From Gnetum montanum (lineage: Eukaryota; Plantae; Gnetophyta), in NCBI GenBank assembly GCA_015680685.1, contig MNCI01000270.1, positions 29,062 to 93,061 on the forward strand: a stretch of 64,000 bases of DNA, written 5' to 3'. The position numbers were made by a program, and so were the translations under genes. A model generated the notes under the pieces. The model had not been told where the DNA came from. It ran no database searches and worked only from the letters and a program-made list of their open reading frames with translations. This document shows positions 2,546 through 46,800 of this stretch, one piece after another. Position 1 is the first letter of the stretch. Each line of letters begins with the position of its first letter.

Positions 2546-3101
2546 TATTGGTAATGTTATAACATATGATATCACTTATTTCTCAAAGAGGTGCCTTGTT
2601 GGTTAATTTAAAGATTTTGTACTTAGAACTAGCAATTAAAGTACTTGAACATGAAACTCATGTAAAAATTAAAGGATTTGCCTAGAATTGAACCTAAAAT
2701 TATGGACATTGGAGGGTTACTTAAAGGATAAGGATAAGGATAAAAATAAATAAAACAAAATAAAATAACTGATAAAAATTAATGTAATCCGAGCTCCGCT
2801 GCTCAAATAAATATTTGTTGTGGAAACATACTTTCAGCTTTGCAACCTTCATTGTTGTTTTGTTCACACGAATGCAACCATCATTCCGATTAACTCACCC
2901 TTGCTGATTTTCTGCATAACCCTCTACATCTTGTTCATCCACCGTTGTCATTTATCTGTATCCATCAATGGCTTCAATTCAAACTCTTGGTGAATCTCGT
3001 TTCATTTCTTTGACGACAATGAATTGTAACATTTATCAAAAAGATCGGATACATTAGATAGATCAGTGAATATATGGTGGTGGAACACCTCTTCTGATCC
3101 T

Positions 3102-6446: not shown

Positions 6447-7332
6447 TGATGAGTGGCGAGATACCCCTACACTCAACCATACGAATACGAGCGTTTTCAC
6501 GCACGATCCGGTCGAACTCCGCAGACGGACTAGTTGTGGCACCTAGACAGTTAGCCTTAGGTTGCAGTTTGCTGTCTTCCCACTTGGACTAGTATTATAT
6601 TTGTCACGTATGGTTTAGTCCAGAGTGAGGTGTATGATGTGGTCCTAATCTAACGCTACTCCTGAAGCAATGGAAGATAAGATTAACTAAGCTAGGAGGA
6701 AAAGGGTAAGAGATTCTAAACTAGCCTAAGTGCGATGAGCATCCGTTCCTTGATTATTCGTACACATCTTGGACTTCGTGCACGACTACCACTGGGATTA
6801 CCAAGCGCAGATCCTAGGGGGGCTACTGGGTTACCAAGTAGTCACACTTCAATGCTCGTAATCAAGTCGTACTCATTCCACGTTTTAACATGAGTTTAAG
6901 GGTGAGAGAGACTAATTAGGAAAACAGTAAATAATAATTAAATAAATAAAAAACAAAGTGAATGCTGCAATGATGAAGTAATCTTGATCTTTATTGCCGA
7001 TCATGTGCGTGTCCAAGTACGTCACACTCGAATAAAGGATGTCGTACAATTACATTCACCACACTGCGGGCAGACACGGGAAAAATAATCTATCTTTGGA
7101 GGGATCAAACTGCTAGAGTTTCGCTACAATCTAACCTATGTATGATAAACAAGGGAGAGCCACTTATTATTTATAGACATTGCGGCGGATTGCGATATCG
7201 TGTAGGCAATATCGCAAGGGACGACGCAATATCGCAAGGGATGCGATATCGCAGGGGACAATGCAATATTGCGGGGGATGCGATATCGCAACTGATGCGA
7301 TATCGCGGCCTATGCGATATCGCGTCCCATCA
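6447..7332 (-). mobile_element. Solo LTR (TGATG...CATCA) with 5-bp TSD
   Basis: Termini TGATG (6447) and CATCA (7332). Perfect TSD ACCAC at 6442-6446 and 7333-7337. TATA-like TCTATAAATA on the minus strand at ~7168-7177. CpG-rich, so probably young. Confidence 0.9.
7190..7325. repeat. GCGATATCGC palindrome array in the LTR U3
   Basis: About eight GCRATATYGC copies spaced 15-20 bp, just upstream (minus sense) of the TATA box. Confidence 0.9.
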
Positions 7333-8075
7333 ACCACCTCCAAAGAACAAGCAGAGGAATACTCCCTAGAGACCCCCAACACAAGTGTTGAAGATGACGA
7401 GGCACCCTCCAACAAGCACTGTCGACCATAAACACGAGTAACAAGGATAGGATGAGCTGGAGGGTCCAAAGGCCGCACAACTTGCCAAAGGGCCAAAATG
7501 AGGCCTAAGTGCCATCCCCTCCGCTCATGATGCAGCAATGCTAGGAAAAACTTAGGGATATTAACTAGCTAGGCAATCTTCATGTAGTGCAAGAAAGTAA
7601 AATGTGCCTCTTGTAGTTTCCAAGCATTCCCGAATTGCACACAAAGTACTGTTCAACAAGCTCCACCGCCTCTTGCCAAAGGGGAAGTAGCACAGACTGC
7701 AAAACCTACTAGCTAGCGGTCTTGGGGATAGGGCTGGAGAAGAAACCCTCGACATCATATAAACCACATCCAGTAGGTCGGATTACCTCACCCATTGCTG
7801 GCACTCCCAGATAGTCTACCAACAATTCCTCTGTCAAATTGATACAAACAACTCTAAAAGTAGTGGCATCCTCATGCCATTGTCGAAAGAAACGGGTGTC
7901 CAGGAGCTCAGGTTCTTCAACAATGTCCTAAAGTTGACTCTTTTGCCTATACTCCTCTGCCTCCAGTTCGAACATTAGTGTAACCCACAGTGCTACCGTA
8001 GTCTCGGCCCAAAGCCTACATGCCAACAAAGCTATGTGTGTAGGAATAGGAGGCAAAGCTCTAAAACTTCTAGCC

Positions 8076-13574: not shown

Positions 13575-14393
13575 GATTGATCTTCAAGAATTTGAATGAT
13601 GTCAAGATGATGGTCTACCAAGGAGGAGAGGATCCACCATGATCTCGCAGGAGCAGCAACCACACATGCAATGGAAGAGGATCTCAAGTAGAAGATCCGA
13701 TCCAGGATCCTAGAGGAGGCATGGCTGCAGGAGGCACACAAATAGGAGGAGCAGGTGCATTGGGAGGAGGAAGAGCCGGAGGCATCTTAGATCTAGATGC
13801 AGCTGGATGGGGTGTATAAGAGCAGCGCATGCTCTTGGCTCAATGAGGGATGCTGCCGCTATGTAACCATGAATATTGGGCACAACACGACATGGGGAGC
13901 GCTGAGGTAGCATATACAGCAGTGGGGGAAGGAGCTACACCTTGATAGGGAAGGGAATGTAGTGCACAAAGAAGGAGCCTTTAAGGATTTTTAGCAAGTA
14001 GCCGCATTTGTGGACACCGAGTGGCATAGAGCAATTTTGGATGCCATCCACAATTAGGAATGAAGTTTCTGCCATTGTACAAAGCTGCCATTTCAATTAT
14101 AGATTGTGTTGTAGGGTGGGGGTTGGATTGGGTGGGTATATGCTTTGTTGTTTTGGCCTTTGGGATGGTGTTGTCTCTTATTTGGGGGAATCAGGTTGGA
14201 GGGCACAGGAGGGAGTCCTGCAAACACAATTTTGTAATGGGGGATAGAAGGGGCAAAACAATTTAATACAACCCCCCACCCCCNTGGGAGGTGAGGGAAA
14301 GGTTCTCCCTTCTTCTTTTTTTCTTTGGGGCTTGGCTGCCTGATGTACATGCTGTTTAGATTAATATAACCCAATTTTTTCCGAAAAAAAAAA
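13575..14393 (+). mobile_element. L1-clade LINE copy C, 3' fragment (coiled coil + J-domain)
   Basis: Reads WLNEGCCRYVTMNIGHNTTWGALRxHIQQWGKELHLDREGNVVHKEGAFKDFxQVAAFVDTEWHRAILDAIH...CHC. TGTACA, TTAATATAA and poly(A) at 14384-14393. Confidence 0.85.
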
Positions 14394-18796: not shown

Positions 18797-19222
18797 ATCA
18801 ACCTCTAGAGGAGCAACAAAGGAAGGAAAAGGAATTGCTTTGGTTCCAACAGGCTGCTGCCTTTATGGCTTCAAAACACCAATGCGAGATTCTTGATAGG
18901 GTTCATTCCAGGATGCAATGTAGATGTGCTTGTTCCAACCTGCCCCACCATGATTAAGGGGCCCGTGTTGGTGTTGTTTGTTGGGCTGTGCTTTTTTATG
19001 TCCCATTATCTAGGACCTCGTTTCAAAATAATACACTGCCTTAAGCTTAGATAGAAAAAATAAGCTATAAAATCTATTAAGCATAAAGGTCTCGTGGAAC
19101 TCACTTAAGGGGATGGGGATACCTCCCCTATTTTTTGGATCTAGGTCCTGATTGTACATATTCTTTTATTTCAATTAATTTAATCCAACCTGACCTTTTT
19201 CCAAAAAATAAAAAATAAAAAG
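18797..19222 (+). mobile_element. L1-clade LINE copy D, short 3' fragment (C-terminal half of J-domain + tail; same subfamily as B)
   Basis: ORF 18757-18957 ..KEKELLWFQQAAAFMASKHQCEILDRVHSRMQCRCACSNLPHHD nearly matches copy B. Tail matches 5430-5520 in reverse complement. Confidence 0.85.
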
Positions 19223-19239: not shown

Positions 19240-20200
19240 AGGGGCTTGAGGTCTCCTTCTCCTGTCCTCGATAGCCACGAGTTGGAGCTATGATTTGTTG
19301 TAGAGCTACCACAAGCAATGAAGGAGGCTGCAAAGTGGGCAAGGTCGGAGGAAAGGTGCATGTGGGAGGCAAAGTGGAGTGCCCCAAAGGAAGAGTTCCA
19401 TTGGCTCACTACCCATCTGCAGACCCAATATGCTGAAAACGAGAAGGAGCTTTTGCAGAAGCGCGAGCTGCACGAAGTGGCAACAAGGGCTGCACTAATT
19501 GATGATTTGCATGTCCAGATCAAGGAATAGGTGTGATAGGATGTGCAACAGAGGGTTGAGCAAGAGCAGATGGAGCTACTGACTAAGGAGCAGGAGCAGG
19601 AGGAGGCTAAATAGTTGCAACAGCAGTAGGATATGGTGCATGCACATAATGCTCAGATGTGGCTGTGTGATGGGAGATGTCCATATGTCATTATTGACAT
19701 AAACAATAACACTTCTTGGTTGGCTCTACACCGACACATTAGGCAGTCATCGGCTAAGCTTCAACCAAATGGCAAGGGGCGTGCAACCAAGTGTGCACCG
19801 AAGGAGGGTGCTTTTAAGGAATTTCAGCAAGTGGCTACTTTTGTTGACACTAAACATCATCGTGATGTGATGCAGGTCATTCACTGTCAAGAATATCCCG
19901 ATTGTGAATGTACTAGGTTGTTAAAGAGCCTTTAGAAATTGGGTACTATATGTACCAATGTCCTTATTTGTGATGGTTTTTTCCCCAAGGCCATGTGTAT
20001 TGGCCATTTTTGACCTGTTGTGCCCAAGTGTAGGGGTACTCCTCTCTAGTTTCCTGTTTGTGGTGGTTGGTCATCTTATATAGTTTTCAGTAGATGGAGT
20101 GGGGAGAAACTCACTCGATAGCGGAGGCACATGCTTAGACACAATTTTGTTTGTACATTTTCAGGACTTAATATAATCCCGAACATTTTTAGGAAATACC
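19240..20200 (+). mobile_element. L1-clade LINE copy E, 3' fragment (coiled coil + J-domain; same subfamily as H)
   Basis: ORF 19318-19530 is the coiled coil. ORF 19633-19935 reads GRCPYVIIDINNNTSWLALHRHIRQSSAKLQPNGKG..KEGAFKEFQQVATFVDTKHHR..IH..PDCEC. Confidence 0.9.
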
Positions 20201-24596: not shown

Positions 24597-27500
24597 TTTT
24601 TTTTCTTTTTTTGAGAAATGATCAGGCAAATTATATTACAGGAAGCAAGTTACATGCAAGAATGGGCAGGGGTGAGAAACCCCCAATGCAACAAAACAAG
24701 AACCCAGTGGGGAAGGAAAACCCCTGCAACAACACCCACAAGGAAGGGGAAAGACTAGACCTGACCCTATCAGTAAGAGAACCATTGATGGCTGCAACAT
24801 GTGTCCCTCATGGCACTCAAAACCGCCAACCAAAAAACAGCAAAACCTAATATAAACACCTTTTGAGAAATGACAAAAATGTCAATTCATAGGGGGAATG
24901 GCAGCCTCTTGTAGGTATAGTGGGGCATCTACTATCCATGCACCCTGTCAACAATCTCATGCTCCTCCTCAAATAGCATAAACCCTACAGTCTCCTAAAA
25001 AATTTTGAACCTTTCCTCATGTTCGCCTTGCACCTGTTTTGCCATCTAGCACACCTTGTCAAGATGAAGAGTGCATGATGTTTGTCCGATGTACTTCTGA
25101 AGGTTGTCCCATAGAGTATCTATGTTATGCCCATCACAACATCTAGGCATCTGCCCTCTTTGAACCACATCCTGGCATTCAAGGTGAGTGTCTTATATTG
25201 GAGCTTCCTCATATTTTCATCTTCCAGGAGCTCCTTCACCCATCTAAACAACTCCTACTGCTCCTACTCCTACTCCTCCTTTTGCAACTGCTTTCTAATC
25301 CCCCGCACAACACCCCACCCCCAAAGAAAAAAAAAAAGACGATGAAGACATTGCCATGTGTGCCCTCCCCCTTCTTGCATACAGCCTAGTAAATAGTGCA
25401 ACAGCCAACCACTTGGAACATATGGCCATACAACTGGCCTAGCCACCTGCCAAAAGGCAAAAACCAAGTCGAAGCACCACCCCCATCAAGGTTGCTGAAG
25501 CACTGTGAGAAAAAACTGCAAAAGATTAATTCGTCTCCCCAACTGCAAGCATCACATGAACATGAAATGCACCTCTTGCAACTTCAAACTGTTCCCAAAC
25601 TAAATGAAGAAGCACTCCACCAACTCTGTCACCTCTTACTAGATGGATGACAAACATAAACGAGGATCCTGCCCACTAGAGGTCCTAGAGATGCTCCCTA
25701 AGAAGAATGGCACAACATCTTGTAGCCCCATGATGGTGAGCAAAATCACCTCCCCCATTGCCCAAATGATATTCCTGACAAGCTGGTTGACTTTGTCAAC
25801 CAACCCATTGTGGTGCGGCCACCACTGAGGCCACTCACCTCACCATACTTGCAAGGATTGTGGTGGCCAACGGCACTTCCCCTTTACTAGACAGAAATCA
25901 TGACATCCAATGTTTGATCTTAGCCTGCATTCTATGAATAATGCAAGACCAAGTAATTGACCATTGCCAAGCAAACATTGGAACCCCCAAAAATGCTTCC
26001 TCCTTACCCCTTTGTCCCATTCCTAGTACTTGAGGATCCCTCTTTTCATAACTAAGACAATGTGGATAAAATGGACAGCTAACGTGCCCCAATTGATGCT
26101 GAGACCCACCTCCCTACTCATCTTGTTCAATACCTTCTTGATATTTGACACTTGCAGCATTGTAGCTTTTGTCACCAAGATGGTGTTGTTTGCATAATGA
26201 TTAGTGATACACATGATGCCCTCCATCCTATAGTACATGGTCATGGTGTCCAGGACCAAGATAAATAAAAGGGAACATAATGGATCCCCTTGACGCAAGC
26301 CCCTTTGTAGGGAGGAGAACCCCCACAACTACTCATTGATATCAAATGAGAAGGCTCTAGTTTACTATATCTACAAACATAAGTTTACAAACCTAGGATG
26401 GAACCCCTTGCAGAGCATTATCTAACCAAGGGAGGTCCAATCAATTGTGTCATATGCTTGCACAATATCCAAATTAAGGAACATACCTAGGAATTCCACC
26501 CTCAATGTAGAGTGCATGAGCTCATGAAGAAGTCAGATTTCATCTCGGATGCACCTCCCCTCAACAAACTGCACCTAATAGTTCCCAATCAACAACGACA
26601 TCAATAGCTGCAAATGTCTCACCAAGACTTTGGAAAAGATACTAAGCAAGGATTTGCACACCCCAATAGGCTGAAAATCCATAGGTCTCACTAGAGTCAA
26701 GACCTTGGGCAACAAGAAAACCCTAGAACAATTGATTTTTTTTTGACTTGACCCCAATGCAACATGACATTGAATGCATCCACTAGGTTATCCCCAATGT
26801 CCTCAAAAAACTTGTTAAAGAATTCAATAGGAAAACCATTCAAGCCTGAAGCCTTCCCCACTTTCATAGTGTACATTGCTTCAAGAATCTCAACCCTTGT
26901 GATGTGTTGTAGTAGTCTTTGGTTATCCATTTGTGTAAACACCCTCTAAATCAACACTGTAATGGGGGAGGTGTCTCCCCTTTTCCATATCCTTTCCTAG
27001 AATTGCTAAATGCACTAGGCAATCTATCTTGGGTTTGTAATGCATGTTTCACCATCAAATAGCACCTCAATGTTTTTGGCCCTCTTGATGACATTGGCCG
27101 ACACAAAGAGAACTTCATATTACGGTCACCTTCTCTAAACCATCAAACCATAGAACATTCCTACCAATAAATCTCCTCCTCCATCGAGAGCCTTTGAAGA
27201 TCCTAAAGGATGAAACATTCCTCACTCTACAAAACCTTTTCCTCTTCTTGCAATTGTTGTATCATCTACAGTTTCGAAGTCCATTTGTACTTGAGAGACT
27301 TACCTATCATGCTTGGCTTATGCTCTAAATCCTTGTTTGACCTATTGAAGATTCCCTCTAAGAAACTTCCTCAAGTCATGACTACTGTAGTACACCAACC
27401 ACACCTCCTATAACAATTGTTTTAGCCAAGGTTTCCCCAACTAGGATTGCTCAAAACAAATGCCTTGGTAGCCTATGTCTCAAGGATGGTGTACCTTATA

Positions 27501-28890
27501 GTGCAAACCAATGGCCTATGATTGGAGGCCCTTTGTTCTAGGGCAATGACCTTGATGCATTTGTCCATGACTATCTTAGTACTAATCCATACTTTGTCAA
27601 TCTTAGACATGACATGATCATGCCCCCTTTTGTTGTTGGTCCATGTAAACTAGCAACCCAGAATATCCATGTCCACCAACTTGAAATCATTGAAAAATCT
27701 AGGGAAGTGTGATCCCCCATGAGGCTCCACAACTCCTTTTCTAGCTCTTCCCCACTCATAGAGCCTCTAGTTGAAAACCCTTGCTAGGATCCAAGCTTTG
27801 TGATTGCTCACCTCCAGTACAATAACTAGAAGCTCTTTACGCCAATCATCCTAGGTTTATGGACCATAAATGTTTATTAGTCAAATCCCCATATCAACGA
27901 AAAACAAAGTCAAGCCCCAATCAAAGACATATATCCACTCTACATTATATTTGGAATAATGGCCAACATCCCCACATGACCTCTACAATCCACAAAGAAT
28001 GAATACAAACTAGGCCAGTTTAACGAATGCCTTTGCGTATGTTGGAGCTTAGTCTCCTACAAGCAAACAATATTACAATCTTCTCTCCTTATGAGTTTTT
28101 TTTACAGCATTTTGCTTGTATGGGGTATATTGTCCCCTGCAATTCCATGAGAAAAGCTTCACGGTCTACCAATAGACCTTTTATTGTAGACCATCTTGAG
28201 GGTCCCCTAAGTTCCTAACTCCAAATCTTGAGTTGTTTACTTGATCTTGGTCTATTGGAGACTCGATCAGCCTATTTTCCTGGTTTCAAGCTGCACTTTG
28301 AATTTGGCCTCTTGATCTTTAAGAATTTGTCTCTTCGCCAATGGGAAGACAGGAACAATAGAACCCCAGGAAGGGGTCACACACAACTCCTATGTGAACA
28401 CCACCCCCATGGAACCCTCCATAGAAGCAAAGGAACCATCGGCAACTTGGACCTCCCCACCCATAGGGCAGGCCGCCCTAGCATCCTCTTCATTGCAATT
28501 AGTCTACAACAACACTTCCACCACCACCCCACCCCTCTCTCTCTTGTAGGGCAAGATGCCAAAGACCTCCAGGCTTTGGAGGGCCATAAACTTATTGCTA
28601 GCACCTCTCCCACCAAAATCTTTCTTCAACACACTTGAAAGAACAAGCCCAAACACAAAAGACCTTGGCAAGCTAAGGATGCCAAGGAAGACTTGACCCT
28701 TTTAAGAACTATGTTTGGCTGAAAATCAAGAAGCAAACATAAACTTATTGCTAGCACCTCTCCCACCAAAATCTTTCTTCAACGCACTTGAAAGAACAAG
28801 CCCAAACACAAAAGACCTTGGCAAGCTAAGGATGCCAAGGAAGACTTGACCCTATTAAGAACTATGTTTGGCTGCAAATCAAGAAGCAAA
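24597..28890 (-). mobile_element. L1-clade LINE copy F (ORF1 remnant, APE, RT, internal deletion, Transposase_32-like domain, J-domain)
   Basis: RT motifs GLRQGDPLCSLLF and HYANN (26023-26328), KASGLNGFPIEFF (26697-26942). APE remnants 27500-28130. J-domain ~24950-25170: ..LWDNLQKYIGQTSCTLHLDKVC..EHEERFKIFxETVGF. Poly(T) on plus strand at ~24597-24612. Confidence 0.85.
28585..28890. repeat. 153-bp tandem duplication
   Basis: CATAAACTTATTGCTAGC...AAGAAGCAAA starts at 28585 and again at 28738, with very few mismatches. Confidence 0.92.
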
Positions 28891-28924
28891 TATTTAAAAA
28901 TGTAGGTGAAGGCTAAAATCAATA

Positions 28925-29105: not shown

Positions 29106-29526
29106 ACAAATTTGCCACAATTTCATGAAGATGCAAATAATGTGGAAGTTTAAAAGAGTGTTGAAGAATTAAAGAAAAGTAGTAACGACCCAAAGATCAA
29201 CCAAGGAAAGCCATCATCCTAGAAGAAAGATCAAGCAAGCAAGCCGCCCTAGCATCCTCTTCATTGCAATTAGTCTACAACAACACTTCCACCACCACCA
29301 CCCCATGTGCCGCCTCCCCCTCCTTTTTTTAGAGCAAGATGACAATTGTGAAGATACAGTTTTCCTTTGTTGTAAGCAAATTTCAAGCTAGCTAGAAGGT
29401 TGTTATGAACTCATTAAGCTTTCATTAGCTTTGTGAACAAATCAATAGGATAAATCCCAAAAAAATCATTTTCAAAAAACTGAAACTTTGCTGCATGTGC
29501 ATCATCAACAATTTCAAGGTTTTGAG

Positions 29527-30990
29527 ATGGCGAGAGTAGGTGTGGGAGAGGGAGTGGGTGCCAGTGCGGGTGTGGGTGCCAACAAGGGCATCGAAGAGGG
29601 AGATGGTGGAGTGGCAAACCCACATCCTATGGTGAGCAGGGTGGGGTTGGTTGTTGGTGGGGCCGGTGGGGAGGACAGGAGTGTAGGTGCAACATTTCTA
29701 GGGGCAAGCTAGCAGTCAAGTGACAAGGGCAGTGAAGCTTGTTCCCGGATGGAGGGCTCCATGCATCTTTAGGTTCATGGGAAGCCCTACAAGGAGGTTT
29801 AGATGATGGAGAGGAGCTTGATTGGCAAGTTTGTGTTGTCGGGGGCCTACCCTAAGTTGGACCTAATTCAAAAATGGACTTTTGAAACTTGGGGTTTGGG
29901 GGAGCTTGAGACACGAAGTCTCTCAAAGGAGCTCCTTCTTTTTGTTTTCCAGTCGGTGGAGGACCACGACAAGGCCTTGTTAGGGGAGCCATGGTTTTAC
30001 CAAGCACAAGGGCTAGCACTGACACCATGGTGCCCTAGGGCTTATTAGGATATAGACTTGTTTTCTAAGGCACTTGTGTGGATTTCCATCTTAGATATTC
30101 CTTGGGAGATGTGGATGCATGAGTTCCTAAAAACACTTGTCGGGTTCTTTGGTGAGTTTATTTATTTTGACAACTTTACTGGCTCCATGGAGCAGATGGG
30201 CTTTGCTAGATTTTGTGTGTGGAGATCCCTCTCTTCCAAATATTTGATGAAGGAGATCATCTTAGAACTTCCATTGAGAGATGCAAAGATCCAAGTGGAA
30301 TATAAAAATCTGTCCAATGATAAAACAAGATCTACACCACCAAACACAGGCTGCTCCACATTGCAGCCACTTGCAGATTTAGGGGCAAATGCACCACCTA
30401 AATAGATTGTAGAATGATGGGTATGCGTGGGGCATCATGGATGTCCGATGGTGGCACCTCTAAAGAAGACTATAGAAGAACAACAATAAAAAGTACTCAA
30501 GGCCTTTGAAGATTTGCAACTATATGTTACAATAAGCATTTTCATGAAACACTAAGTCCCTACAACACAAAACTGTGAAACATTGAGGGCAAAACCGTTG
30601 GGAGATTCCCCCAGTGGCAAAGGTGGCTAATAACCTAGCACCAATGCTGGCACTAGTGGAGTTAGCCTATGGACCGATCTTGGTCAAGGGGCAATCCTTG
30701 CAGGGGAAGGGATCCTTCCAACTCCTTGATCCCTTCCTCGACGAGAAGGGGTGTGGAGCTCACCCCATTAGGTGATTGGGTGTCGATAGTCAGGGAAGCG
30801 TTGATGCCCAGAATGTCAAAAGTCTCTAATCCAATGGCAAGGGAACCTAGAAATTTTCCCCTATCACCGAGCTCAGGGAAGATGGGTAGGCCTCCTACAC
30901 CACTCACTCACGCAAGAAAACATAGATGGATATTGATTTGGGGTTGTAGCTGACCTTGAAAGAGGTCTATAAAAAATGGTCCATGGGTAA
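29527..30990 (+). pseudogene. LINE G ORF1 (DUF4283/RRM-like)
   Basis: ORFs 29803-30048 (SLIGKF...LLLFVFQSVEDHDKALLGEPWF...LTPW) and 30058-30405 (VWISILDIPWEMW...GEFIYFD...GFARFCV...VEY). Confidence 0.88.
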
Positions 30991-30993
30991 GCC

Positions 30994-33900
30994 ATGAAAA
31001 TTCTCTCCTGGAACTGTAGAGCATAGGGTACGGCCTACAAAAGAATACCCTAAAAGAGATTGCTAGAAGTGAAGATTATGATGTGATCTATCTCCAATAG
31101 ACAAAGTTGTAGCTGGCCGAATTCCATCATTTGAGGTGGGAAGGCTGGCATACGCAGTTGGTGGCTTGTCAGAGCTAGGCAGGGGGATTAGTGATTTTGT
31201 CAAAAATCACTTTTAACCTACTGGACTCTTTTGTGCGGAATATAACAATTCATATTTCTTCGACTGGGCTTTGGGTTACCAATTTCTATGGGACCCAAGT
31301 GTGGCAGGCCAGGTTGTAGGAGTTAAGCAGGGTGGCAACGTTGATGCCTAACACTGGCCGATGCGTCATTGTTAGTGACTTCAATCAACGCCTACATCCA
31401 TGGGAGAAATTAAGGGAAGACAGTAGTAGCACCCTTGGGGCTCAACAATTTCTATGGTTCTTGGAATCATATGTGCTGGTGGATATGGAGATAGAAAATT
31501 GCTACTTCACATCGAGTAATAGGAGGCGAGGCAATGATCGGGTGCTATCTAGGATTGACGAGGTGTTGGAAAGTTCAGAACTTTTCATGTAATTTGACAT
31601 CCAGGTTTTTGGGAAGGAAAGGCATGCATCATATCATCGTTCCATTGTCTACCATATGGGAGGTAGAAGATGAGACGCCACCCCCCCCCCCCCCCCCCCC
31701 CGGGGGTCCTTTTTTTTTTTTTTTTCAATTTGAGCGCTCCTGGCTCCTCAAGCCATAGCTAAGACCTCTTGTGAAGGAGACATGGGGTGGTTACCCCAAT
31801 TAGAGAGACCCACAGGATTTCCTTAGAGATGGCTTGCTCCAATTGAAATGGGTTATTCGCTCTAAAAAGATTTAAGACAAGTTCACCTTTAGAGCTTGCA
31901 AGAGGGACTTTCAACGACACCTATGGGACATTCAAGATCAGCAAGAGTCAAGGGCATGGTTAGAGAAGGAGGAGGATGTTATTCTGAGGCAGCTCCAAGA
32001 CCTCGCTGCAAAGGAAGAATTATATTGGAAGCAACAGGCTCGAGTTGATGGCGTAGGGAGGGGGACAAGAACACACAACTTTTCTTTGCTACTACCAAAT
32101 CTAAGGGACAAGCAAAGCAAACGTTCCATCTGGTGAAAAATAGATCCAATCTTGAGAACCCCCAGGTAATCGTGAAGGCAATGGGTGATTATTGGGTGAA
32201 CATATGGGGCAAAGGGCACACACTTCCAGTTTCAATATAGGTGCAACTTGTGTTAGGAGAAGAGAAGAACCGTTTGCTGTTGGCCCCTTTCATGATGCAG
32301 GAGTTGGACACAGCCATGATGTCAATGAAGGCAGATAAGGCTCATACCCCAGATGGCTAGAACATTAAGATTTTCAAGGGGTTTGCGGATCTACTCGAGC
32401 AAAATGTGTTGGATGCTTTCAATCTGATGTTATGGAGGCGGCAAGTTCGACAGGAGCTTAATTGCTCCAAGATTGTCCTCATCCCCAAGCAACCCAACCC
32501 AACGAATTCAATGCAATTTCAGCTTATCAGTGTTTGCAATGTTCTGTTATGTGTTTTCACTAAGATGCTGGTCTAGCATTTGGCCCTGATGATATCAAAG
32601 CTGGTAGAAGAACATCAAGCAAGCTTCATCATAGGTAGATTCTTATAGGACCAAGTGATCTTGATGCAAGAAGTTCTTCATGTAATGCAAGAGGAGGGTT
32701 TTTTTGGGATGTGCCTGAAACTTGACATTACAAAAGCATATGATACAGTGAACTAGGAGGCTCTTTCCACAATTATGATTAACAAAGGTTTTGATTCCAG
32801 ATTTGTCAATTTGTGCATCTAGTTGTAGGTGTTGGGAGCATATTCTAACATTGGTGTGAAGCTCTAGGGGTTCTCCTCCTCAAGTAGGGGTCTTCAACAA
32901 GGAGATTTGCTTTGCCCTTAATCATAATGGATACCCTGCAACTATATTGCAAGGCAAAAGGTGTTAGAGGGCTTGAGATTGTAGGGGTGGAGTGCTTAGC
33001 GCAACACTATGTTGATGACACTATTCTACTTTCATGGGCTATTGTGCCACAAGCTATGGTGATTGACTACGCTCTCAAACGTATGGCCTTGGAGGTAGGA
33101 TTAGAAATTAACCATGGCAAGTCAACCCTTCACTTGCTTAATGCTGATGCTCGAGTGGGGCACAAAATTTCACAAGTACTAGGGATTCTTTAGGGTATGG
33201 CATAGGATTCCTATTTAGACATCACTCTATTTGAGTGGGAGAGAAATCGTAATTGGTCCCAAATGGTGCAAAAAATGGAATACCAGATTGGACATTGAAC
33301 TAATCATTTCCTTACTCAAAAAGGGCAAGTAATGCTTGCTACAATAGTTTTAGCTGCCATGGCCCAGTTCACGGCCTCTGTGGCTTCTCCTCCTAAGGGC
33401 ACTATCAAGAAGATTGATTAGCTAGTTCACAACTTTATTGGTTAGGGGGTAAAGGGGGTAATCGTATACATCTGGTCTATTGAGAGACTATTGCGAGAGC
33501 TAGGGATGCTAGAGGCCTAGGAGTTTTGAAATTTGAAGACAAAATAATGATGGGCAATCAGAGACTAATTAACCATCTATTACAAAATCAAGACGGGGCG
33601 CTCAATGGATTAAAATTATGGATGGTAAGTATAGGCGTTGGGAAGCAAACCATCAGGATTCATCGATATGGAGAACACTTTGCAAACATGCATAGGTTTT
33701 GCTAAGGGGAGGCTTGCTGGGGTCATCGTTGCAGCAACTTATTGAGGCAAAGTATCCTGAGTTGACGAATGGGCAAAAATTTGGAAGGGATGGCTACAAG
33801 AAAAGCCTAAGGTTTTCATTTGGCTTACTAGGCATGATGTGCTTCCAGTGCAGGCTATCCTACATAGGAGGGGGTTAAGTATTAATGATAGTTGTCCATT

Positions 33901-35521
33901 ATGTTTCAACAACCCCAAGACCATGGAACACTTTGTATATCAATGTCCATATGTGGTGGACACTTGGCGAGCTACAATGCTTTGGGCTCATGCAAATTTG
34001 AGTGGTTACTCCACAGTGACGATGGGTCTCTGGGCACTTTGGAAGATTCAAAATAGCACAATCTTTAGGTCAACGTGACCTTATCCACCGGAACAAGCTA
34101 CGACAGTTGGCATTAGACTTTGGAGGGAGGCAATTGTCACTATGGGCAGAATGCGCACATTCTAGCTAGCGTGTACAACATACCATGCAAATCCGGAGCT
34201 ATGGTGGCTTGTGGAGCATGTTGGATGGGCCGAGGTCCTCACTCAGCTAGAGGGGGCCCTAGAGTTGGCCGCTAACTTGTTTTCTCCAACTGGGCCAAGG
34301 ACGTTACATTTTTTCATGAAGTTCAAATTAAATTGACAAAGGTCATGATTGCACACTATCTTGGGATCTCAGCAATGGGGGAAACTATGATCCCAGCAGA
34401 GCGGGGTTTCTAGGATGCCGAAGCCTTTTTTAATGGTGCTGTTCCGAGAACAAGTAACGACTAGGTGCCAAAATCAATGCTCTTGCAGCTATGGTAACAG
34501 GCAACGGACCTCGTGGACCAGTTCCTAATCCAATTAGGCAATGCTTGGAAGTTACAAAGCACACACTTCACCCTAATGAAGTGCATGCATTTGGGCCGTG
34601 GGGTGAACTTGCCCAAGTTTTTCCTGACCTCACTTTAGCAGCAACGCCAGGGACACCACTTGGGTTTGATTTTGGCATTGTGGCGGGTTGCTTCCCTAGT
34701 TGTGCCGTCATCAACACCCACGACCTCATGCAAAATGGTCTATACCTATAGGCCGAGGAAACCCCAGAGAGGGTTCCCTGTGCTGGGGCCAAAAGGTTTG
34801 TCTGTGTTTGAAGGGGAAGGAGCAGGATTTGGGAGGTTCCCCTCTCCAGTCCCCGGCAGCTAGGAGACTAGGCTACAGCGAACTGAGGAGCTACTGCAGG
34901 CAATGGAGGAGGCCATCGAGGAGGCAAGAGAGGAGGAAAGACAAGTATGGGAGGATAAGTGAAGCACTTGGAAGGCGAAGTTTCAATGGATGACCACACA
35001 ACTGCAAACCCAATATGCTAAAAGAGGGAAGGAGTTGTCGCGAAAGCATGAGCTTCATGACACAATGACCAAGGTAGCTTTGATCGATGATCTACAGGCC
35101 TAGATCAAGGAAGGGATGATGCAAGAAAGGCAATAGAGGGCTAAATAGGAGCAGCTCGACCTATAGGGCAAAGGAGTGGGAGGGGGAGGAGGCAGAACAA
35201 CTGTAGAGGCAGCAAGATAAAGTGCACGCCCAGAATGCCAAGATGTGGCTACGAAATGGGAGATGCCCATTTGTCATTCTAAACATAAACATCAATATAA
35301 CTTGGTTGGCCCCACGTAGAAATATTAGAAGATCTTCTGCTAAACTTCATCTTGATGGCAAGGGGGATGTTGGGAAGTGTGCACAGAAAGAAGCTGCATT
35401 TAAGGAATTTGAGTAGGCGACTGTGTTCGTGGACACTGAACATTATCGGGAGGTGTTGCAAAATATTCATAGTTAGGAATATCCTAATCGTAAATGTTCT
35501 ACGTTATCAAAGCATCTTTAG
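30994..35521 (+). pseudogene. LINE G ORF2: APE - RT - zf-RVT - Transposase_32-like - coiled coil - J-domain
   Basis: MKILSWNCR, SDFNQ, LSRID (APE). KLDITKAYD, GLQQGD, HYVDD (RT). CPLC..ETMEH-like zf-RVT at 33839-34078. Frame continues through deamination-type stops and two frameshifts to the stop at 35519-35521. Confidence 0.85.
35264..35450 (+). other. J-domain (DnaJ-type) coding segment within LINE ORF2
   Basis: CPFVILNININITWLAPRRNIRRSSAKLHLDGKGDVGKCAQKEAAFKEFExATVFVDTEHYR aligns by eye to the J consensus PYEVLGV..NAS..EIKKAYRKLALKYHPDKN....AEEKFKEI.EAYEVLSD..KR. Confidence 0.8.
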
Positions 35522-35681
35522 TTTGTGGGTACTATAGGTACCCCTATCCATGTTTTTGTGAGGATGTTTTATCATGGGGCTAGATGTGGGGCACAATTTT
35601 TGACCTAGTGTACCTATGCATGAGGTCATCCTTCTCTATGTTTCTGTTTTGATGTGGTTTGTAGTCTGTCTTACCTATTTA

Positions 35682-35890
35682 GGCAAGTGGAGGGGAGAAG
35701 TCCCCCCTTTCGACAGAGGGGACACCTCCGCAAATATTTTTTGTACGTGTAGTCTTTCTATTTTCTTTCTTTTAATATAATCCCAATGCAAGTGGAGGGG
35801 AGAAGTCCCCCTTTTCGATAGAGGGGACACCTCCCCAGATATTTTTTGTATGTACAATCTTTCTATTTTCTTTCTTTTAATATAATCTTG
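35682..35890 (+). repeat. Tandem duplication (~105 bp) of the LINE G 3' terminal unit
   Basis: GCAAGTGGAGGGGAGAAGTCCCC..TTTAATATAATC occurs at ~35683 and ~35788. Confidence 0.9.
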
Positions 35891-35994
35891 AACATTCTCT
35901 CTCAAAAAAAAATTGAAACTTCTAGGCACATGCTAATTTTATTTTACCAGTCTTGTTGGAAGATCACTTTATAATTTTCTGATTTGTGACATGC

Positions 35995-38900
35995 TTTTTT
36001 TTCTGAAATGTCTGGGATTATATTAAGTAAAGTCATAAAATGAACAAACAAAATTGTGTCTAGGGATATGCCTCCCCTATCGAGAGGGGGTTTCTCCCCC
36101 CTCCATTTGCTGAAAACTATATAAGATGACCAACCACCGCAAACAAGAAACCAAAGAGTGCCCCTACACTTGGGCACAACAAGTCAAAAATGGCCAGCAC
36201 ACATGGCCCCAAGGAAAAAACCATTACAAACAAGGACATCGGTACATAATAGTACCCAATTTCTAAACGCACTTTGACAACCTACTACATTCACAATTGA
36301 GATATTCCTAACTATGAATGACCTACAGCACATCACGATGATGTTTAGTGTCAACAAAAGCAACCGGCTGCTGAAATTCATTAAAAGCAATCTCCTTCTA
36401 TGCACACTCGGCTGCATCCCCCTTTGCCATCTAGATGAAGCTTAGCTGATGACCGCCTAATGTGTCGATGTAGAGCCAACCAAGAAGTGTTATTGTTTAT
36501 GTCCCTAATGAGATAGGGACATCACCCATCATGCAACCACATCCAAGCATTATGTGCATGTGCCTTATCCTGCTACAGCTGCAATTGTTTTGCCTCCTCC
36601 CACTCCCACTCCTTAGCTAGCAGCTCCATCCACTCCTACTCAGCCCTCTACTACTCTTCTTGTTGCAGCTACTCCTTGATCTGGATGCGCAAATCATCCA
36701 TCAGTGCTACCCCTGTCGTTGCTTCGTTCAACTCACACTTCCACAAAAGCTCCTCCTTATCAGCATATTAGGTCTCATAATGGAGCATATTAGGTCTCAT
36801 AATGGGCAATGAACTGCTGGAACTCTTCCTCTTCGACACTCCACTTTGCCTCCCACATGCACCTTTCCTCCCACCTTGCCCTTTGCAACCTCCTCTGTCA
36901 CTCACTACAGTTATGCAACCAATCACAACTCCAGCACTTGGCTACTAAGGACATAAGGAGACCTCCCCAACCCCGCTCCTTCCCCCTCCACTGCAAAACC
37001 CCACCCCTACGCCAAAGCATCCCTTAGGAAATCTAGGTTCCTACACAAGTAAACCATCCTGCACAAAGCTGTAGTCGCAATCGGCAGAGCAACCGAAGTA
37101 GCTACCCGCCACAAAGCCAGAATCAACCACAAGTGGCAACCTCGACGCTATCGCTAAAGTGTCACCAAGAAGAATCTCAGAAAATTCATGCCACACCCCA
37201 ACCCCATGCACTTCAATAGGGTGATGCATGTGCTCTGTGACTTCCAACCATTACCAAACTAGACCAGGAAACAATCCACAAGCTTTGCCACCTGTTGCCA
37301 TAGCAACACCAACTTCTATACTTGGCCACTACTCGTTTTTGGGACCACGCCACTAGACAAGCCTTCAACACCCTGTAGGTCATGCCTTGTAGGAAGCATA
37401 GTTTTCCCCATCGCTGGGATTCCAAGGTACTGCATAATCGCAGCCTTCATCAACTCAACTTGAACTTCGCAAAAGGACATAACATCCCTAGCCCAATTTG
37501 AGAAAAATGGACCTTCAACCGGCTCAGGGCCACCCTCCAGTAGAGAGAAGACCTCAGCCCATCCGACTCACTCCACCATCCGCTAGAGCTTTGAATTCGC
37601 CTGATAAGCCATACACAAAGGCTCAAAAGTTGGCGTTACTCCCATTGTGACCATAGCCTCCTTCCAAAATCTAATAGCCATAGCCGCTACCAATGCCAGT
37701 GGAGGAGGCCACACCGACCTGAAAATTGTGCTATTCTCGATCTTCCAGAGAGCCTAGAGAACTACCATCACCTTAAAATCTTCATTCAAATTTGCATGGG
37801 CCTGAATTGTCGTAGCTCACCAAGTGTCCACAACATAAGGGCATTGGTATAAAAAGTGTTCAATCGTCTCAGGGGTGTTGGAACATAACGGATGACTATC
37901 ATTAATGTTTACATGCCTCATATGTAGGACAACCCGCATCAAAAGTGCCACATGTCCTATTAGCCAAATGAAAACCTTGAGCTTTTTCAGCAGTCGTCCC
38001 TTCCAAACGTTCCTCCATCCATCAACATGAGGATATTTAGTCTAAATAATCTACCATTGTGACACCTCCAACAAACCTCTCCTCATCATATCCTATGCAC
38101 ACTTGCAAAGTTTTCACTAGATGGGTGATGCCCGATGATCTGCTTCCCAACATCTATACTTGCCATTCATAATTCTAATCCATTGAGCTGCCCCCTCATC
38201 ATGCTATAAGATCCAATTAATTAATCGCAGATATCCCTCATAACTCCAAGACCCCAAGCTTCCCTTGGTCTCATTGTAGTCTCCCAACATACCAAATGCA
38301 TATGATTACCCCCTTTACCCCTTGACTAGATTCGAACCAACTGATCAATCTATATTATAATACCAATAGGGGAAGAAGCCACAAAAGTCGTGAGATGGGC
38401 CATGGTAGCTAAAACCATCATAGCAAGCATCACCTGACTCTTCCAAGTAAGGAAACAATTTTACCAATGCCCGATTCGGTGTTCCATTTTCTGTACCATC
38501 TTCGACCAAGTTTGATTCCTCCCCCAATCAAAAAGAGGGATACCTAAGTAGGAATTCTGAGCAGTACCCCGAAGAATCCCCAACACTTGAGAAATTCTAC
38601 TTCCAACTCTAGCATCAACATTGAGTAGGTGAAGGGTTGACTTCCCCCTATTAATTTCTAATCCCACCTCCAAAGCCATTCGACAAAGTGCCCAATCAAT
38701 CGCCTGAGCTTGTGGCACCGCCACCTACAAAAGCAACATAGTGTCATCTGCATAATGTTCCGCTAAGCACTTCACCATAGCAATCTCTAACCCTCTAACT
38801 CCATTTGCCTTGCAATATAGCTGAAGGATATCCATCACTATAATAAAAAGTAGGGGAGATAGTGGATCTCCCTGCCTAAGCCCCTTGCCAGGGGAGGAGA

Positions 38901-40558
38901 AACCCCAAAGCCTACCCCCAATATCAAAAAAGTAAGCTCTCGACTCTTGTAGCTGGATGCATAGATTCACAAAACTAGAATTAAATCCCTTTTGAATCAT
39001 AATCGTCGAAAGAGCCTCATAGCTAATTGTATCATACACTTTCGTAATGTCCAACTTCAAGCACATTCCAAGAAACCCTACCTCCTGCATCAAGTGAAGA
39101 ACCTCCTACATCAAAATTACTTGGTCTTGTAAGAATCTATCTCTGATGAAACCTGCTTGATGTTCCCCCACCAACTTTGGCATAAGCAGGACCAACCATC
39201 AAACTAGCATCTTTGTGAACACTCGAAGCAAAACATTGCAAACACCAATCGACCAAAATTGTATAGGATCCCTAGGGTTGGGCTGCTTGGGAATCAAGAC
39301 AATCCTAGAACAATTAATCTCCTATCAAACATGCCTCCTCCATAACATTAGGTTAAAAGCATCCAACATGTTTTGCCCCAATAGATCCGCAAAAGCCTTG
39401 AAAAATTCAATAGTCCAGCCATTTGGACCAAGGGCCTTGTCTGCCTTCATCGATGCCATTGCCACATCCAACTCTTGTAGCATGAATAAGGCTAGCAGCA
39501 ATTGGTTCTCATCTTCTCCTAACACTCTTTGCACTTGTTTAGAGAGCGGTAACGTGTGTCTCTTGTCCTAGATTTTAGCCCAATAATCACCCATCACCTT
39601 TGTGATTTCTTGAGGGTCTTCAAGAGTCAAGCCATTTTGCACCAAACTGAGCATTTGCTCATTTCAACTAGAGCAAACCTTCCCTAAGAAAATCCCATGG
39701 GTCTCCCTAGTTGGGCTAACATTCCCAAATCTCCTCCACAAGAGGTCTCAACTAGGGTTTGAGAAGCCAAGAACATTCAAATCAAAAAGGAGGGGGAGGT
39801 CTCTTCTTCAGCCTCCCTAGATGGAAGACAATGGAACGATGATCGAACGCTTGCCTTTCCTTCCCAGAAACTTGGATATCAAGCTACATCAGAAGGTCCA
39901 AGCTCACCCACACTTGATCAATTCTAGACAAAACCCAATCCTTTCCCCTCCTCCTATTAATCCATCTGAAACAACAGTCTTTTATCTCCATATCCACCAG
40001 GTCATATGATTCCAAGAAAAACAAAAACTACTAAGCACCAGGGGGATCACTATTATTCTTGCCAGATTTTTCCCAAGGATGTAAACATTGATTGAAACCT
40101 CCAACAATGAGCCATTTGCACCTGTTAGGCACCAACGATGCCACCATCCTTAGCTCTTGCAATTTGACCTCCCACAGTTCGGCCCCATAAAAATTGATAA
40201 CCCAAAGTCCAGACAAAATTATGTATACTATTATACTCCAAACAAAAGAGTCCACCAAGTTAAAAGGGACTCTAGACAAAACAACTAAGCCCCCAACCCA
40301 ACCCTGACAGCCAACTAGTTGTGCATGCCATCCTTCCCACCTCAAATAGTGGAATTTAGTCTGCTGCAACTTTGTCTCCTAGAGATACACCATGTCACAA
40401 TCTTCACTCCTAATCATCTCTTTCAAGGTATACCCTATCCCCTACAATCCCATGAGAAAATCCTCATGGCTTACCAGCCGACCTTTTTTTTTTTTATAAA
40501 CCTCTTTCAAGGTCAGCTGCAACGCCAAATCAATATCCATTTGTGTCTACTAGCCTTG
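35995..40558 (-). mobile_element. L1-clade LINE copy H (end of ORF1 + complete decayed ORF2 with J-domain)
   Basis: APE in ORF 40031-40369 (QQTK..GGFN). RT in ORF 38725-39093 (KLDITKVYD, GLRQGDPLSPLLF, HYADD). J-domain ~36330-36525 (CPYLIRDINNNTSWLALHRHIRRSSAKLHLDGKG). Poly(T) on plus strand at 35995-36002. Confidence 0.92.
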
Positions 40559-43805: not shown

Positions 43806-46800
43806 GGACTGCCCGCGATGTTGCATAGTCATAAAAGCAACCACCTCTTGGAATTCCTTGTACTTATCTTCACTTTTCTATCTATCCTTAGGTGGCAAAG
43901 TTTGAGTCCTATCTAGGTGGAACTTAGTTGTAGTAGCCCAAACATGATGACGCAAAGTGGTCCCCGCAACATTCTTGTTGATACCCATCACCACATAAGG
44001 ACATCACCCTTTCCTAAACCAGCAGCAATCATCAGACTCATGAGCAACGTCTAGCCTACTCTACATCTGTTGTTTGTTCTTTGAGGAGGGCTCAAACCTG
44101 CTACTCCTCGTCCTCCTCAGCCAACTTCCTCTCCTACTCTTCCCTGACCAAATACTCCCAAATCTATCTCCACAGCTGATCTTCCAACTCATTCCTCATG
44201 ACAACTTCCCACAATTCTCTCTGTCTTTTTTCTTCCTTACCCTCTTCCCTACAACACTAGCTTTCCTCCATTGCCCTAGTTTGGTCTTGCTGGTCCCGCT
44301 TAGGAAGCTCTGCCTCCCACTTCGCATGCCCCTCCCTTCACACCCTAGCTTTGATTTCAATCATTATCCTGCAAAGCTCTTCATTAAACTTGACCTACAA
44401 CTCCTAATCCAAGGCTTCTTGAACTAATAGAATTTGCTCTCCCACCTCTAGAGGCTAAGTCGTAGCAAAGGTAGACCCCTCCCCTGATCGCACCACGTCT
44501 ACCTGCAGCATAGGGACTGAGGAAGAAGCCCCCTCAATGGGCCTACACCATTTGTAGACTACTGTGAAGGCAAGGGCCTAATGGACACCAGATCAACCGG
44601 CTGCACTACCCTCCAAAGAGCCAAGATCAAACCATAGTGCCTCCCCCGCCTTTCCCACTAGAGAGAGGCCAAGAAGAATTTAGGAATGCTAACCAATCTA
44701 TTGAACTACATGCATCTCAAAAACACAAAGTGAACACCTTGCAGTTTCCAAACATTCCTAGACTAGACAAAGTATCTGTCAACCAGCTCTATAGCCTCCT
44801 ACCAGAGTGGTGGGAGCTCCGACCTCAGAAACTAGCCACTAGCAGTCTTCAGAACTAGCCCCTTAAAGAAACCCTCCGCATCTTGCAGCCCCCATCCAGA
44901 TGGTAGCACCACCTCCCCCACCGCAAGCACTCCAAGGTATCCCACCAAATCGGTCTTCGAAGACTAATGCGCATTATCCCCCCTCCAACACTTGTAGAAG
45001 TTCACATCCACAAGATCCAAATCCACCACCAATAATGGTAGCAAGTCCTCCCATCCCATCTTGACAAGCAAAGCCCACATGTCCCTATTATTGCAAAATC
45101 CATCCACATCAAGCTCATGTGTCGAGGTTACCCCCATCATCGCAGTTGCTTCCTTCCATAGCCATTTGGCCAAGAGGGCTGTGAGTAGTATTGAAGGGAG
45201 CGGTGCAAAATCGTTGCATTTCTTGCATTCTAGATACATCACAACATCGTCATGGCAAGCAAGTCCTTGTGCGCCTATAGAATCAAGGGTTGTCAACTGC
45301 TTGTCCAACATTAGAAGCTTAGGGGCAGTGCACAAACAAGTGTTGCATGGTTTCAATGCATGCACTACAACAAGGGCAATTGTCCACATTAATAATCCCA
45401 TGAACCTTCAAGTAAGCACAAACAGGTAGTGCGCCCTGCATCAGAAGCCAAGAGAAACATTTAATTTTCCCTGGAAGTCGTCCCTTCTGCACAGGTCACT
45501 AGCTGTCCTCTGCAAGATATTGATAAGTTCATGCAGTTGGATCCCCATCATCCCCCCTTGAGTTATTTTGTAGGCATAGTTGCATAGGTTGCACCATATG
45601 TACGAGTCCCCACAGGCCACCACCCAAGGTTGGTATTTGTTAACCATGATGCATGCCCACTAAAGATGACACCTGTGGTCATGCATGAACCTTTCGATAA
45701 TTCTCTAGTACCATCAAAATGATGTCTTCAAACTTAAGGACCCCCAAACCCTCAACAAGCTTAGGTTTGGCCACCTTATCCTAGCAAACCAAGTGTAAGC
45801 ATTCTCCCCCTTTTTCCCCAGACCACATAATGCTCCATATAATTTGGTTGACTTTGTTGATGATGCCCACCGATGGTGCAGCAACAGAAGAAACATATCT
45901 AGTGATGGACAAAAGGACATATGTAACCAAGATGAGCTTACCTTTCCTTCTTAGAAAATGCATAGTCTAGTGACCCACCCAAGATTGGAGCTCCTGAATC
46001 AAACGGGTCCAAGTCACCACTCTACCCCAGGCAAACATGGAAACCCCAAATAAGAGTCCTAAACTGTACCCTACAAAATTCCAAGTTCCTAACAAACTTC
46101 TTGTTGGATAGACCCTTCAATATGAAAAAAGTGTATTGTAGATTTCCCTCGGTTTGACTACAGGCCAACCTTATTTGCCATCCTTTCCAGAGCCCTATTG
46201 ATGGCCAGGGCATGTGGTATGGTTGCCCTCGTCATAAGGATTCTATCATCAGCATAGTGTTCAATGATGCAAGTGACTCCCTCAATGTTCAAACCTCTGA
46301 TCCCCTCTTCCCTGCAATAAAATTTCATAGTATCCATCACAATGATAAAAAGATAAGGGGAGAAAGGATCACCATGACAAATCCCTCTAGCAAGGGAGGG
46401 GAACACCAAAAGCCTCCTGAACAAGTCAAAGGAGTAGGCTCCCTAGGCTTGAAGGTTCATACACAAGGCCACAAACTTCGGGTAGAGTCCCTTCATGAGC
46501 ATGATTTCTTGGAGAGTATTGCATTGAACAATATCATAGGCTTTAGCAGTATCAAGCTTAATTCATATACCATGGAACCTAGTTCATTGTATGGAGTACA
46601 TAGCTTTCTGAAGCAACAAGATCTGGTCTTGGATGAATCTCCCCTTACTAAAAACAACTTAGTGAAGGCCAACAAGATCCAGCATCAATGGCTGAAGTCT
46701 ATGAAAAAGGATTTTGGTGAAGAGCTAGAGCAGCATGCTACAGACCCCAATCAGTCTGTAGTGGGCTGGCAACGTTGGGTTGAACCTCCAAGTCAACCTC

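Follow-up and report, generated by a model that had tools for sequence, protein, structure and literature searches.

ORF2 of a plant LINE very probably extends into a J-domain

The 64-kb window examined here, which is the whole 64,000-nucleotide stretch of Gnetum montanum contig MNCI01000270.1, is plant DNA of approximately 41% G+C and is crowded with decayed repeats. One of these, copy G (29474-35921), is a decayed full-length plant L1-type long interspersed nuclear element (LINE) with a 15-bp duplication and an A-tail at its ends. Its second open reading frame (ORF), ORF2 (ATG 30994 to TAG 35521; 1490 aligned columns), runs on for approximately 460-480 codons past the zf-RVT zinc finger into an extension made up of a middle domain, a putative coiled coil and a C-terminal J-domain. 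This architecture is very probably that of a single ORF. The best explanation of the whole, to be taken as tentative and with a little less than an even chance of being right, is an ORF2 protein (ORF2p) of approximately 1500 residues with a captured module that would recruit Hsp70 of the host to the complex of RNA and protein that the element itself forms.

All features of copy G lie on the forward strand. The left copy of its probable target-site duplication (29474..29488) agrees with the right copy (35907-35921) at 14 of 15 bases, and these are the only two sites with one mismatch or fewer when both strands of the window are considered. As the extension lies wholly inside the unit bounded by this duplication, it moved with the element. 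ORF1 (29527..30972; ATG and TAA) is broken and has a DUF4283 domain (Pfam PF14111, E-value 2.6e-22). ORF2 starts with a region, also broken, whose motifs suggest an APE-type endonuclease (30994..31660; translation and alignment columns 1-222). Downstream of this putative endonuclease are the reverse transcriptase (RT) core, with approximate limits 32250..33212 (Pfam RVT_1 in the G and H segments; columns 401-720), and the CCHC zinc finger zf-RVT (33755..33967; PF13966, E-value 1.9e-14), both of which score over their Pfam cut-offs. The helices that follow the finger (33968..34141; LWKIxN..IFR, then LWxEA), placed by sequence and alignment, are presumably native to L1 and the last LINE-native part of ORF2. 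Next come the middle domain (34142..34695; homology and model), which begins at a retained Met and whose last four helices form a predicted bundle, a variable linker (34696..34863) and a segment rich in Glu, Gln, Ala, Leu, Lys and Arg (34864..35233; 21% Glu), a putative coiled coil from its composition. The J-domain (35234..35458; profile, predicted fold and codons) is followed by a C-terminal tail (35459..35521) with the motif H-x6-C-x-C, then the stop. The 3′ untranslated region (35522..35921) carries a 105-bp tandem duplication, and the A-tail (A9) lies at 35904-35912. It was also observed that a C-run and a T-run break G between the endonuclease and the tether (31670-31725).

A first-pass annotation of this DNA, made by a model from the letters and the open reading frames, had put the extension at approximately 480 residues. 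This figure holds when counting starts at the end of the IFR motif (483 residues), while the foreign part counted from Met 34142 comes to approximately 460. The same annotation had found no RNase H in any copy, and this is borne out by the lack of RVT_3 or RNase_H Pfam matches in the 4 + 16 segments searched and of a KxNxDG-type motif when G, H, A, I and the distant relative L001 described below were read in three frames. Its statement that the extension replaces RNase H is unproven, since non-LTR elements often have none (PMC5348765, in the portion available).

Continuity of the reading frame

A BLAST comparison of the window brought up eight further copies that carry parts of the extension (A, B, C, D, E, F, H, and I). 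Eight window copies (all but D) and L001 were aligned codon by codon with a frameshift-aware script. In the window copies, 33 frameshifts were counted over 6067 aligned codons, equivalent to one per 184, and none is common to all, which agrees with the earlier remark that the breaks fall at different places in different copies. Neighbouring breaks in two copies are present at columns 834/835, 1324/1325, and 1374/1375, one of these pairs being on the RT side. No conserved stop or frameshift separates zf-RVT from the extension.

The junctions can be followed one after the other. The zinc finger is in frame with the junction Met (column 1032) in four of five copies (G, H, A, and L001; I is shifted), this Met is in frame with the middle domain in all six copies, the end of the middle domain is in frame with the coiled coil in three of four window copies (G, H, and A; I is shifted), and the coiled coil is in frame with the HPD loop of the J-domain in six of seven. 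The RT side is no cleaner, with the wrist in frame with the finger in two of five copies. Copy H runs in one frame, as had been claimed, over columns 834-1290, comprising zf-RVT, NSTIFRSVWPPP, the middle domain and the linker, and again from column 1325 to just past its HLD, while E is in frame from column 1263 to the stop; together these close siblings tile the ORF from the finger to the last stop. The corresponding claim for G, that it is in frame from the middle domain through the coiled coil, stands from 34279 to approximately 35166 but takes in only the second part of the middle domain, due to a frameshift at 34277-34279. This break and the one at 33757 are G's own, as related copies carry one more base at both places (6 of 6 RNA reads at 33757 and 6 of 11 at 34279, as well as contigs in two runs).

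With respect to stop codons, there is no alignment column covered by at least three copies at which every copy has a stop, and the copies have no stop in common in the interval from the finger to the Met. Both the RT part and the extension include columns in which half of the copies carry a stop. The internal stops had been read as decayed CAG, CAA or TGG codons. In favour of this, 84 of the 105 stops in columns 1032-1490 are TAG; however, only 67 of 106 past column 1008 have a Gln, Trp or CGA-type codon in another copy, so that the reading holds for part of them.

RNA matching the 3′ part of G was found in two raw runs (1 read and 137 reads). Of the latter, 118 are less than 90% alike to G, and both directions are about equally represented. 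RNA derived from the LINE family exists, although these reads do not show a transcript of the element itself.

Selection on the extension

Between G and H, the ratio of nonsynonymous to synonymous substitution rates (dN/dS) is 0.16 for RT, 0.23 for the finger, 0.25 for the middle domain, 0.16 for the coiled coil and 0.14 for the J-domain, values far from the near-unity ratio that the first-pass annotation had named as telling against its proposal. The pooled ratios of proportions (pN/pS) are 0.43 for RT, 0.45 for the middle domain, 0.61 for the coiled coil and 0.44 for the J-domain, with the weakest constraint in the linker (0.82). When frames are shifted, the G-H ratio of 0.27-0.44 rises to 0.50-0.76 (+1) and 0.93-1.29 (+2). 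The near siblings H and E give a dN/dS of 1.26 in the J-domain, which is neutral decay after insertion, as expected. These counts exclude segments that did not align, namely F past column 782, columns 770-921 of L001 and the J piece of L001. Judged from these ratios, every domain of the extension was under purifying selection.

The J-domain and its HPD loop

The J-domain of L001 scores over the cut-off of Pfam DnaJ (PF00226) with 35.4 versus 27.8 bits. None of the single window copies passes this cut-off, the best being A with 12.9 bits and E having no match, and among five J-bearing segments just one was matched at any score. A profile from the window copies alone, searched against the PDB, gave J-domains as eight of ten matches (best E-value 0.02), and the joint profile with L001 found a J-domain with an E-value of 1.5e-9. 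The stop-free J-domain of copy E was modelled with a mean predicted local distance difference test (pLDDT) score of 81.6. J-domains top both fold searches of this model, the best match by fold comparison being 1wjz (Z 8.4, root-mean-square deviation [rmsd] 2.7, 82 residues aligned) and that by Foldseek 2dn9 (E-value 0.22, probability 1.0). By profile and predicted fold, the C-terminal domain is thus a true J-domain.

The HPD motif of the loop is what drives Hsp70. Among the eight window copies, this site reads HPD in A, HLD in G (35348-35356), H, I, C, and F, HPN in B and QPN in E. The motif is thus intact in one of eight with HLD the commonest state, E has Gln for His and L001 reads YLD, all of which tells against a J-domain of the HPD type. 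The codons for Pro and Asp share one CHG triplet, in which C>T on one strand results in HLD and on the other in HPN. All seven changes of Pro or Asp are C>T or G>A within this single, methylation-prone triplet, and HLN is absent among the eight copies. Transition rates between H and E are 0.32 at CG, 0.35 at CHG and 0.11 at CHH, approximately three-fold higher for CG and CHG. Pro is kept in three separate subfamilies (E, B, and A). From these codons we infer that the active elements had HPD, though some lineages may have carried a J-like domain without it. Recruitment of Hsp70 by this domain in the HPD manner is likely.

The J-domain is also flanked by conserved Cys and His residues. A Cys stands just before helix I in all six tabulated copies, or seven with I (in G, the region is 35264-35497). 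After helix IV, the H-x6-C-x-C motif is conserved, with its His and last Cys each in 6 of 6 tabulated copies. L001 (7552-7780) has a Cys before the domain and HxxHCHxH after it. Given the short distance between the N- and C-terminal ends of a J-domain, these residues may form a zinc clasp.

The middle domain and its origin

A search of 1.84 billion representative proteins with a middle-domain profile gave just two matches, P0005 and P0006. The former belongs to a free-standing family of at least 25 unnamed proteins, whose alignment with the middle domain spans the full length of the latter (hhalign probability 97 and 96). Complete members of this family start with MGGEPRKQEP, and their first Met aligns with Met 34142. 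The junction Met is kept in five of six copies (G, H, A, I, and L001; B is without it). With a retained Met matching the first residue of free-standing proteins, the extension looks captured, and the simplest reading of the alignment would be a captured gene that is read through from the finger with the join at 34142. The same Met leaves open a second, separate translation product. The P0005 family may be an accessory ORF of long terminal repeat (LTR) elements, in keeping with one chimeric match to the family, P0027, that has a retroelement SH3 domain. No homologs of the H segment were found among longer proteins and the coiled-coil/J alignment, used as query, found none. Neither the P0005 family nor the L001 RT had a relative among the viral contigs searched.

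The label "Transposase_32-like", given to this domain in the first-pass annotation, could not be upheld. Neither Pfam Transposase_32 (PF20167) nor ATHILA ORF1 (PF03078) matched the segments of H, G and L001 or the proteins P0005 and P0006, and 0 of 20 members of alignment A5 matched either at E-values up to 1. What is left of the label comes from the protein language-model neighbours in the ESM Atlas, where, for two relatives of the middle domain (P0008 and P0006), clusters named Transposase_32 come first among those with a name, at 0.89 and thus under the 0.9 level used for a lead. A model of the finger with the middle domain was poor (pLDDT 57.8, predicted TM-score 0.30) and is of use over the last 75 residues of the middle domain only (pLDDT 72-82). 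No viral structure matched, and no PDB representative matched at a Z of 8 or more. For the four-helix bundle, SIN3 PAH domains head the ranking (Z 6.7, rmsd 3.0, 66 residues aligned), but this Z is below the level that parts relatives from common helical bundles. A profile match to SARM1 (E-value 0.49) was set aside as chance.

The distant relative L001

P0006 led to locus L001, a contig of 34% G+C holding a LINE. Its RT is 35-38% identical to that of the window copies and its middle domain 24-29%. The order of its parts is ORF1, endonuclease, RT, finger, middle domain, a charged linker of approximately 500 residues, J-domain and A-tail; the domain arrangement is therefore old and not a local accident. 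The middle domain of L001 is in the frame of the finger, with 4 stops in 361 codons versus 19 and 40 in the other frames. The linker through the J-domain follows in a second frame, with 9 stops, all TAG, in 657 codons versus 37 and 76. Near this change of frame (L001 5860-5900), the shift coincides with A AAA AAT, as read in the frame that precedes it, which has the shape of a -1 slippery site; TAA comes immediately next in the -1 frame, and G, H, and A are without a shift at the linker.

Comparison with known systems

With plant L1-clade LINEs, the element shares an ORF1 with DUF4283, an ORF2 with endonuclease, RT and zf-RVT, the A-tail and the target-site duplication. Ta11-type members carry an archaeal-like RNase H (aRNH) after the CCHC motif (PMC5348765, in the portion available). 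The extension occupies this slot, which here contains approximately 460 residues, comprising the middle domain, the coiled coil and the J-domain, and no RNase H.

The ATHILA ORF1 and Transposase_32 proteins resemble the extension in having an accessory helical domain and a long charged tail, conserved within the family (excerpts of PMC11728184 and PMC7264820), but are separate genes of LTR elements, whereas the middle domain is joined to the RT of a LINE and has a J-domain behind it. According to the same excerpts, plant LTR retrotransposons have further ORFs whose role is unknown. Retrotransposons are known to capture domains, as with aRNH in LINEs and with AlkB and others in Ty3/gypsy elements, the latter reported in the accessible part of PMC9289625, which screened LTR elements for extra domains and whose main text does not contain the term "DnaJ". 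No description of a LINE with a J-domain was found in the literature searched, with Repbase and subscription journals outside this search, and the parts of PMC4441479 and PMC6431247 that were available hold nothing on one.

J-domain proteins such as single-client co-chaperones and the plant chromatin proteins DNAJ1/2 and SILENZIO share the four-helix fold, the H-P-D loop, intact here in copy A, and a tether to a domain that possibly picks the client. Solved J-domains are 8-19% identical to the window copies in structural alignments. The J-domain described here differs in being encoded by a retrotransposon, at the C-terminus of an RT protein and flanked by conserved Cys and His. The polyomavirus T antigen also has a J-domain, with the same kind of tethered fold. 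The hepadnaviral P protein is an RT that relies on the Hsp70 system for binding its RNA (PMC2094093, in the portion available). It belongs to an unrelated element class and, unlike the LINE, encodes no J-domain and borrows host Hsp40.

Other copies and neighbouring elements

Copy H (36274..40467, reverse strand) has an ORF2 with an internal deletion and lies tail to tail with G. Copy A (565..2553, reverse) is a 3′ part with the intact HPD, in frame from finger to middle domain and from middle domain to coiled coil. In B (5756..8065, reverse), the middle domain and the coiled coil/J part are split by approximately 960 unrelated bases. C (13620..14097, forward) has only the coiled coil and J-domain, and D (18823..18942, forward) only the end of the J-domain and the tail. 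E (19249..19932, forward) is 5′-truncated, has coiled coil and J-domain in one frame and comes directly after the 3′ end of another copy. An internal deletion in the ORF2 of F (24890..28162, reverse) takes out zf-RVT and the start of the middle domain, while I (43820..46781, reverse) extends from RT through J. There are thus at least nine copies of one LINE type within 48 kb (400-48200), in several deeply split subfamilies with RT identities of 46-73% where measured. This region is possibly a preferred landing site for the LINE type.

Tandem duplications lie at 28585-28893 and 35683-35887. Contigs of a second organism match G at 33938-35787 with 0-11 differences over 290-714 bases and, as it is G itself that they match, its insertion probably predates the split of the two organisms. 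A decayed Ty3/gypsy-type LTR element is present at 59264-63358 (reverse), in which motifs suggest pieces of gag-like, protease, RT, RNase H, and integrase sequence. At 41263-42722 (forward), there are two overlapping open frames of 263 and 247 residues, flanked by repeats at approximately 40882-41139 and 42976-43225 that also match 58456-58754; this is possibly a small LTR-bounded element.

Discussion

An L1 ancestor may have acquired a separate gene, complete with start codon, downstream of the zinc finger, and would then have read straight into it. In the resulting protein, the middle domain would bind a partner or client, the coiled coil would serve as an arm and the J-domain would trigger Hsp70 on that client, a layout which by analogy matches single-client J-proteins. 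Fused to a cis-acting RT, such a module could raise Hsp70 activity where the RNA of the element is bound and copied. ORF2p works mostly on its own RNA, as is established for L1, and for this reason the likeliest client is the element's own machinery; Hsp70 might activate or load the RT, or clear ORF1p or chromatin proteins at the insertion site. That the client is its own RNP (ribonucleoprotein) or integration complex is put forward tentatively, at somewhat less than an even chance. Self-chaperoning is made plausible by the need of the hepadnaviral RT for the Hsp70 system to bind RNA. Sequence by itself cannot separate self-chaperoning, anti-silencing and a separate product.

The ancestral ORF2p of approximately 1500 residues ending in coiled coil and J-domain, already proposed in the first-pass annotation, is well supported, but several points weigh against it. 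No intact copy or intact protein was found among the window copies, L001 or the homolog searches. Stops in the frame of the extension are not fewer than in the +1 frame (H, 21 vs. 18; A, 26 vs. 19), and the linker cannot be aligned between subfamilies. The selection values come from a codon alignment guided by protein similarity, and with synonymous sites near saturation for most pairs, few pairs yield a dN/dS. The middle-domain to coiled-coil junction is shifted in I and L001, and at column 1197, close to where the middle domain ends, TAG is present in four of six window copies (G, H, I, and A). These last two features would be expected if ORF2 ended in or just after the middle domain, at this stop or at the linker shift, with coiled coil and J-domain as a separate or recoded ORF3. 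It is chiefly the single shift of L001 after its middle domain, located at an A-run, that keeps this alternative alive, and it is very unlikely. Column 1197 is CAG in F, CAT in B and AAA in L001, and its TAG fits C>T decay of CAG, given that Gln columns have often turned into stops on both sides (39 of 103 codons in the extension, 34 of 125 on the RT side). Directly past this column, the frame stays conserved (HLGLILALW, a stretch that L001 and P0008-type proteins share), and the linker brings no change of frame in G, H, and A. The extension could also be a passenger from a 3′ transduction, carried but unused, as L1 elements are known to transduce 3′ flanks (PMC6431247, in the portion available) and every copy is broken. 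The chance of this is slight in the extreme, as purifying selection on the module equals that on the RT with dN/dS well below 1, the module is shared by subfamilies with saturated synonymous sites and by L001, and its identity broadly tracks that of RT and finger.

Two other explanations accept the RT frame and differ in what the module does. It might act mainly as a separate protein in trans, made by internal initiation or from a shorter RNA, with the RT frame real but secondary. The junction Met, aligned with a free-standing start and kept in G, H, A, I, and L001 across more than 60% RT divergence, speaks for this, as do the many 5′-truncated copies (C, D, and E) that would carry the module alone. 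It is nevertheless quite improbable: a separate ORF3 would be free to gain a stop between finger and Met and none is found in all copies, B lacks the Met, and the MG may be kept for the fold. Alternatively, the single ORF could encode a chromatin counter-defence, akin to the anti-silencing role raised in the first-pass annotation. The middle domain would then dock on a host silencing factor or on methylated chromatin, Hsp70 or a remodeller would be called in through the J-domain, and the new insertion would escape silencing. In line with this, plant J-proteins act in both directions at methylated transposons (SUVH1/3-DNAJ1/2, SILENZIO and PKL adaptors; 10.64898/2026.08.25.747133 and PMC8616336, as far as available), the nearest named neighbours of the middle domain are LTR accessory proteins (PMC11728184, in excerpt), the bundle ranks SIN3 PAH first and the copies show heavy CG and CHG decay. 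But the sequence itself gives no sign of an anti-silencing role, the PAH match is too low to mark relatives, Transposase_32 and ATHILA ORF1 have no known function in the literature covered and the copies themselves were methylated and decayed. ORF2p is moreover a scarce, cis-acting protein and thus a poor vehicle for lasting protection. Counter-defence is accordingly doubtful, though it merits attention. More specifically, a LINE lineage might have taken an Athila-ORF1-like LTR gene, fused it to its RT and added a J-domain, the Hsp70 arm of which would divert host silencing complexes at insertions; this version is improbable.

Recruitment of Hsp70 to the element's own RNA-protein complex remains the preferred explanation. 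LINEs are usually thought to borrow host chaperones, and the lineage described here has kept a J-domain of its own. Selection on this domain was as strong as on the RT, both across subfamilies and in comparison with a relative of approximately 36% RT identity, which suggests that steering Hsp70 was worth 1.4 kb of sequence to such a compact element. It would offer a natural handle on which step of non-LTR retrotransposition needs Hsp70. As the middle domain is tied here to a domain of known biochemistry, it may also provide a handle on what a widespread accessory domain of plant retrotransposons binds, and LINEs would in this case have a domain in common with a different class of element.

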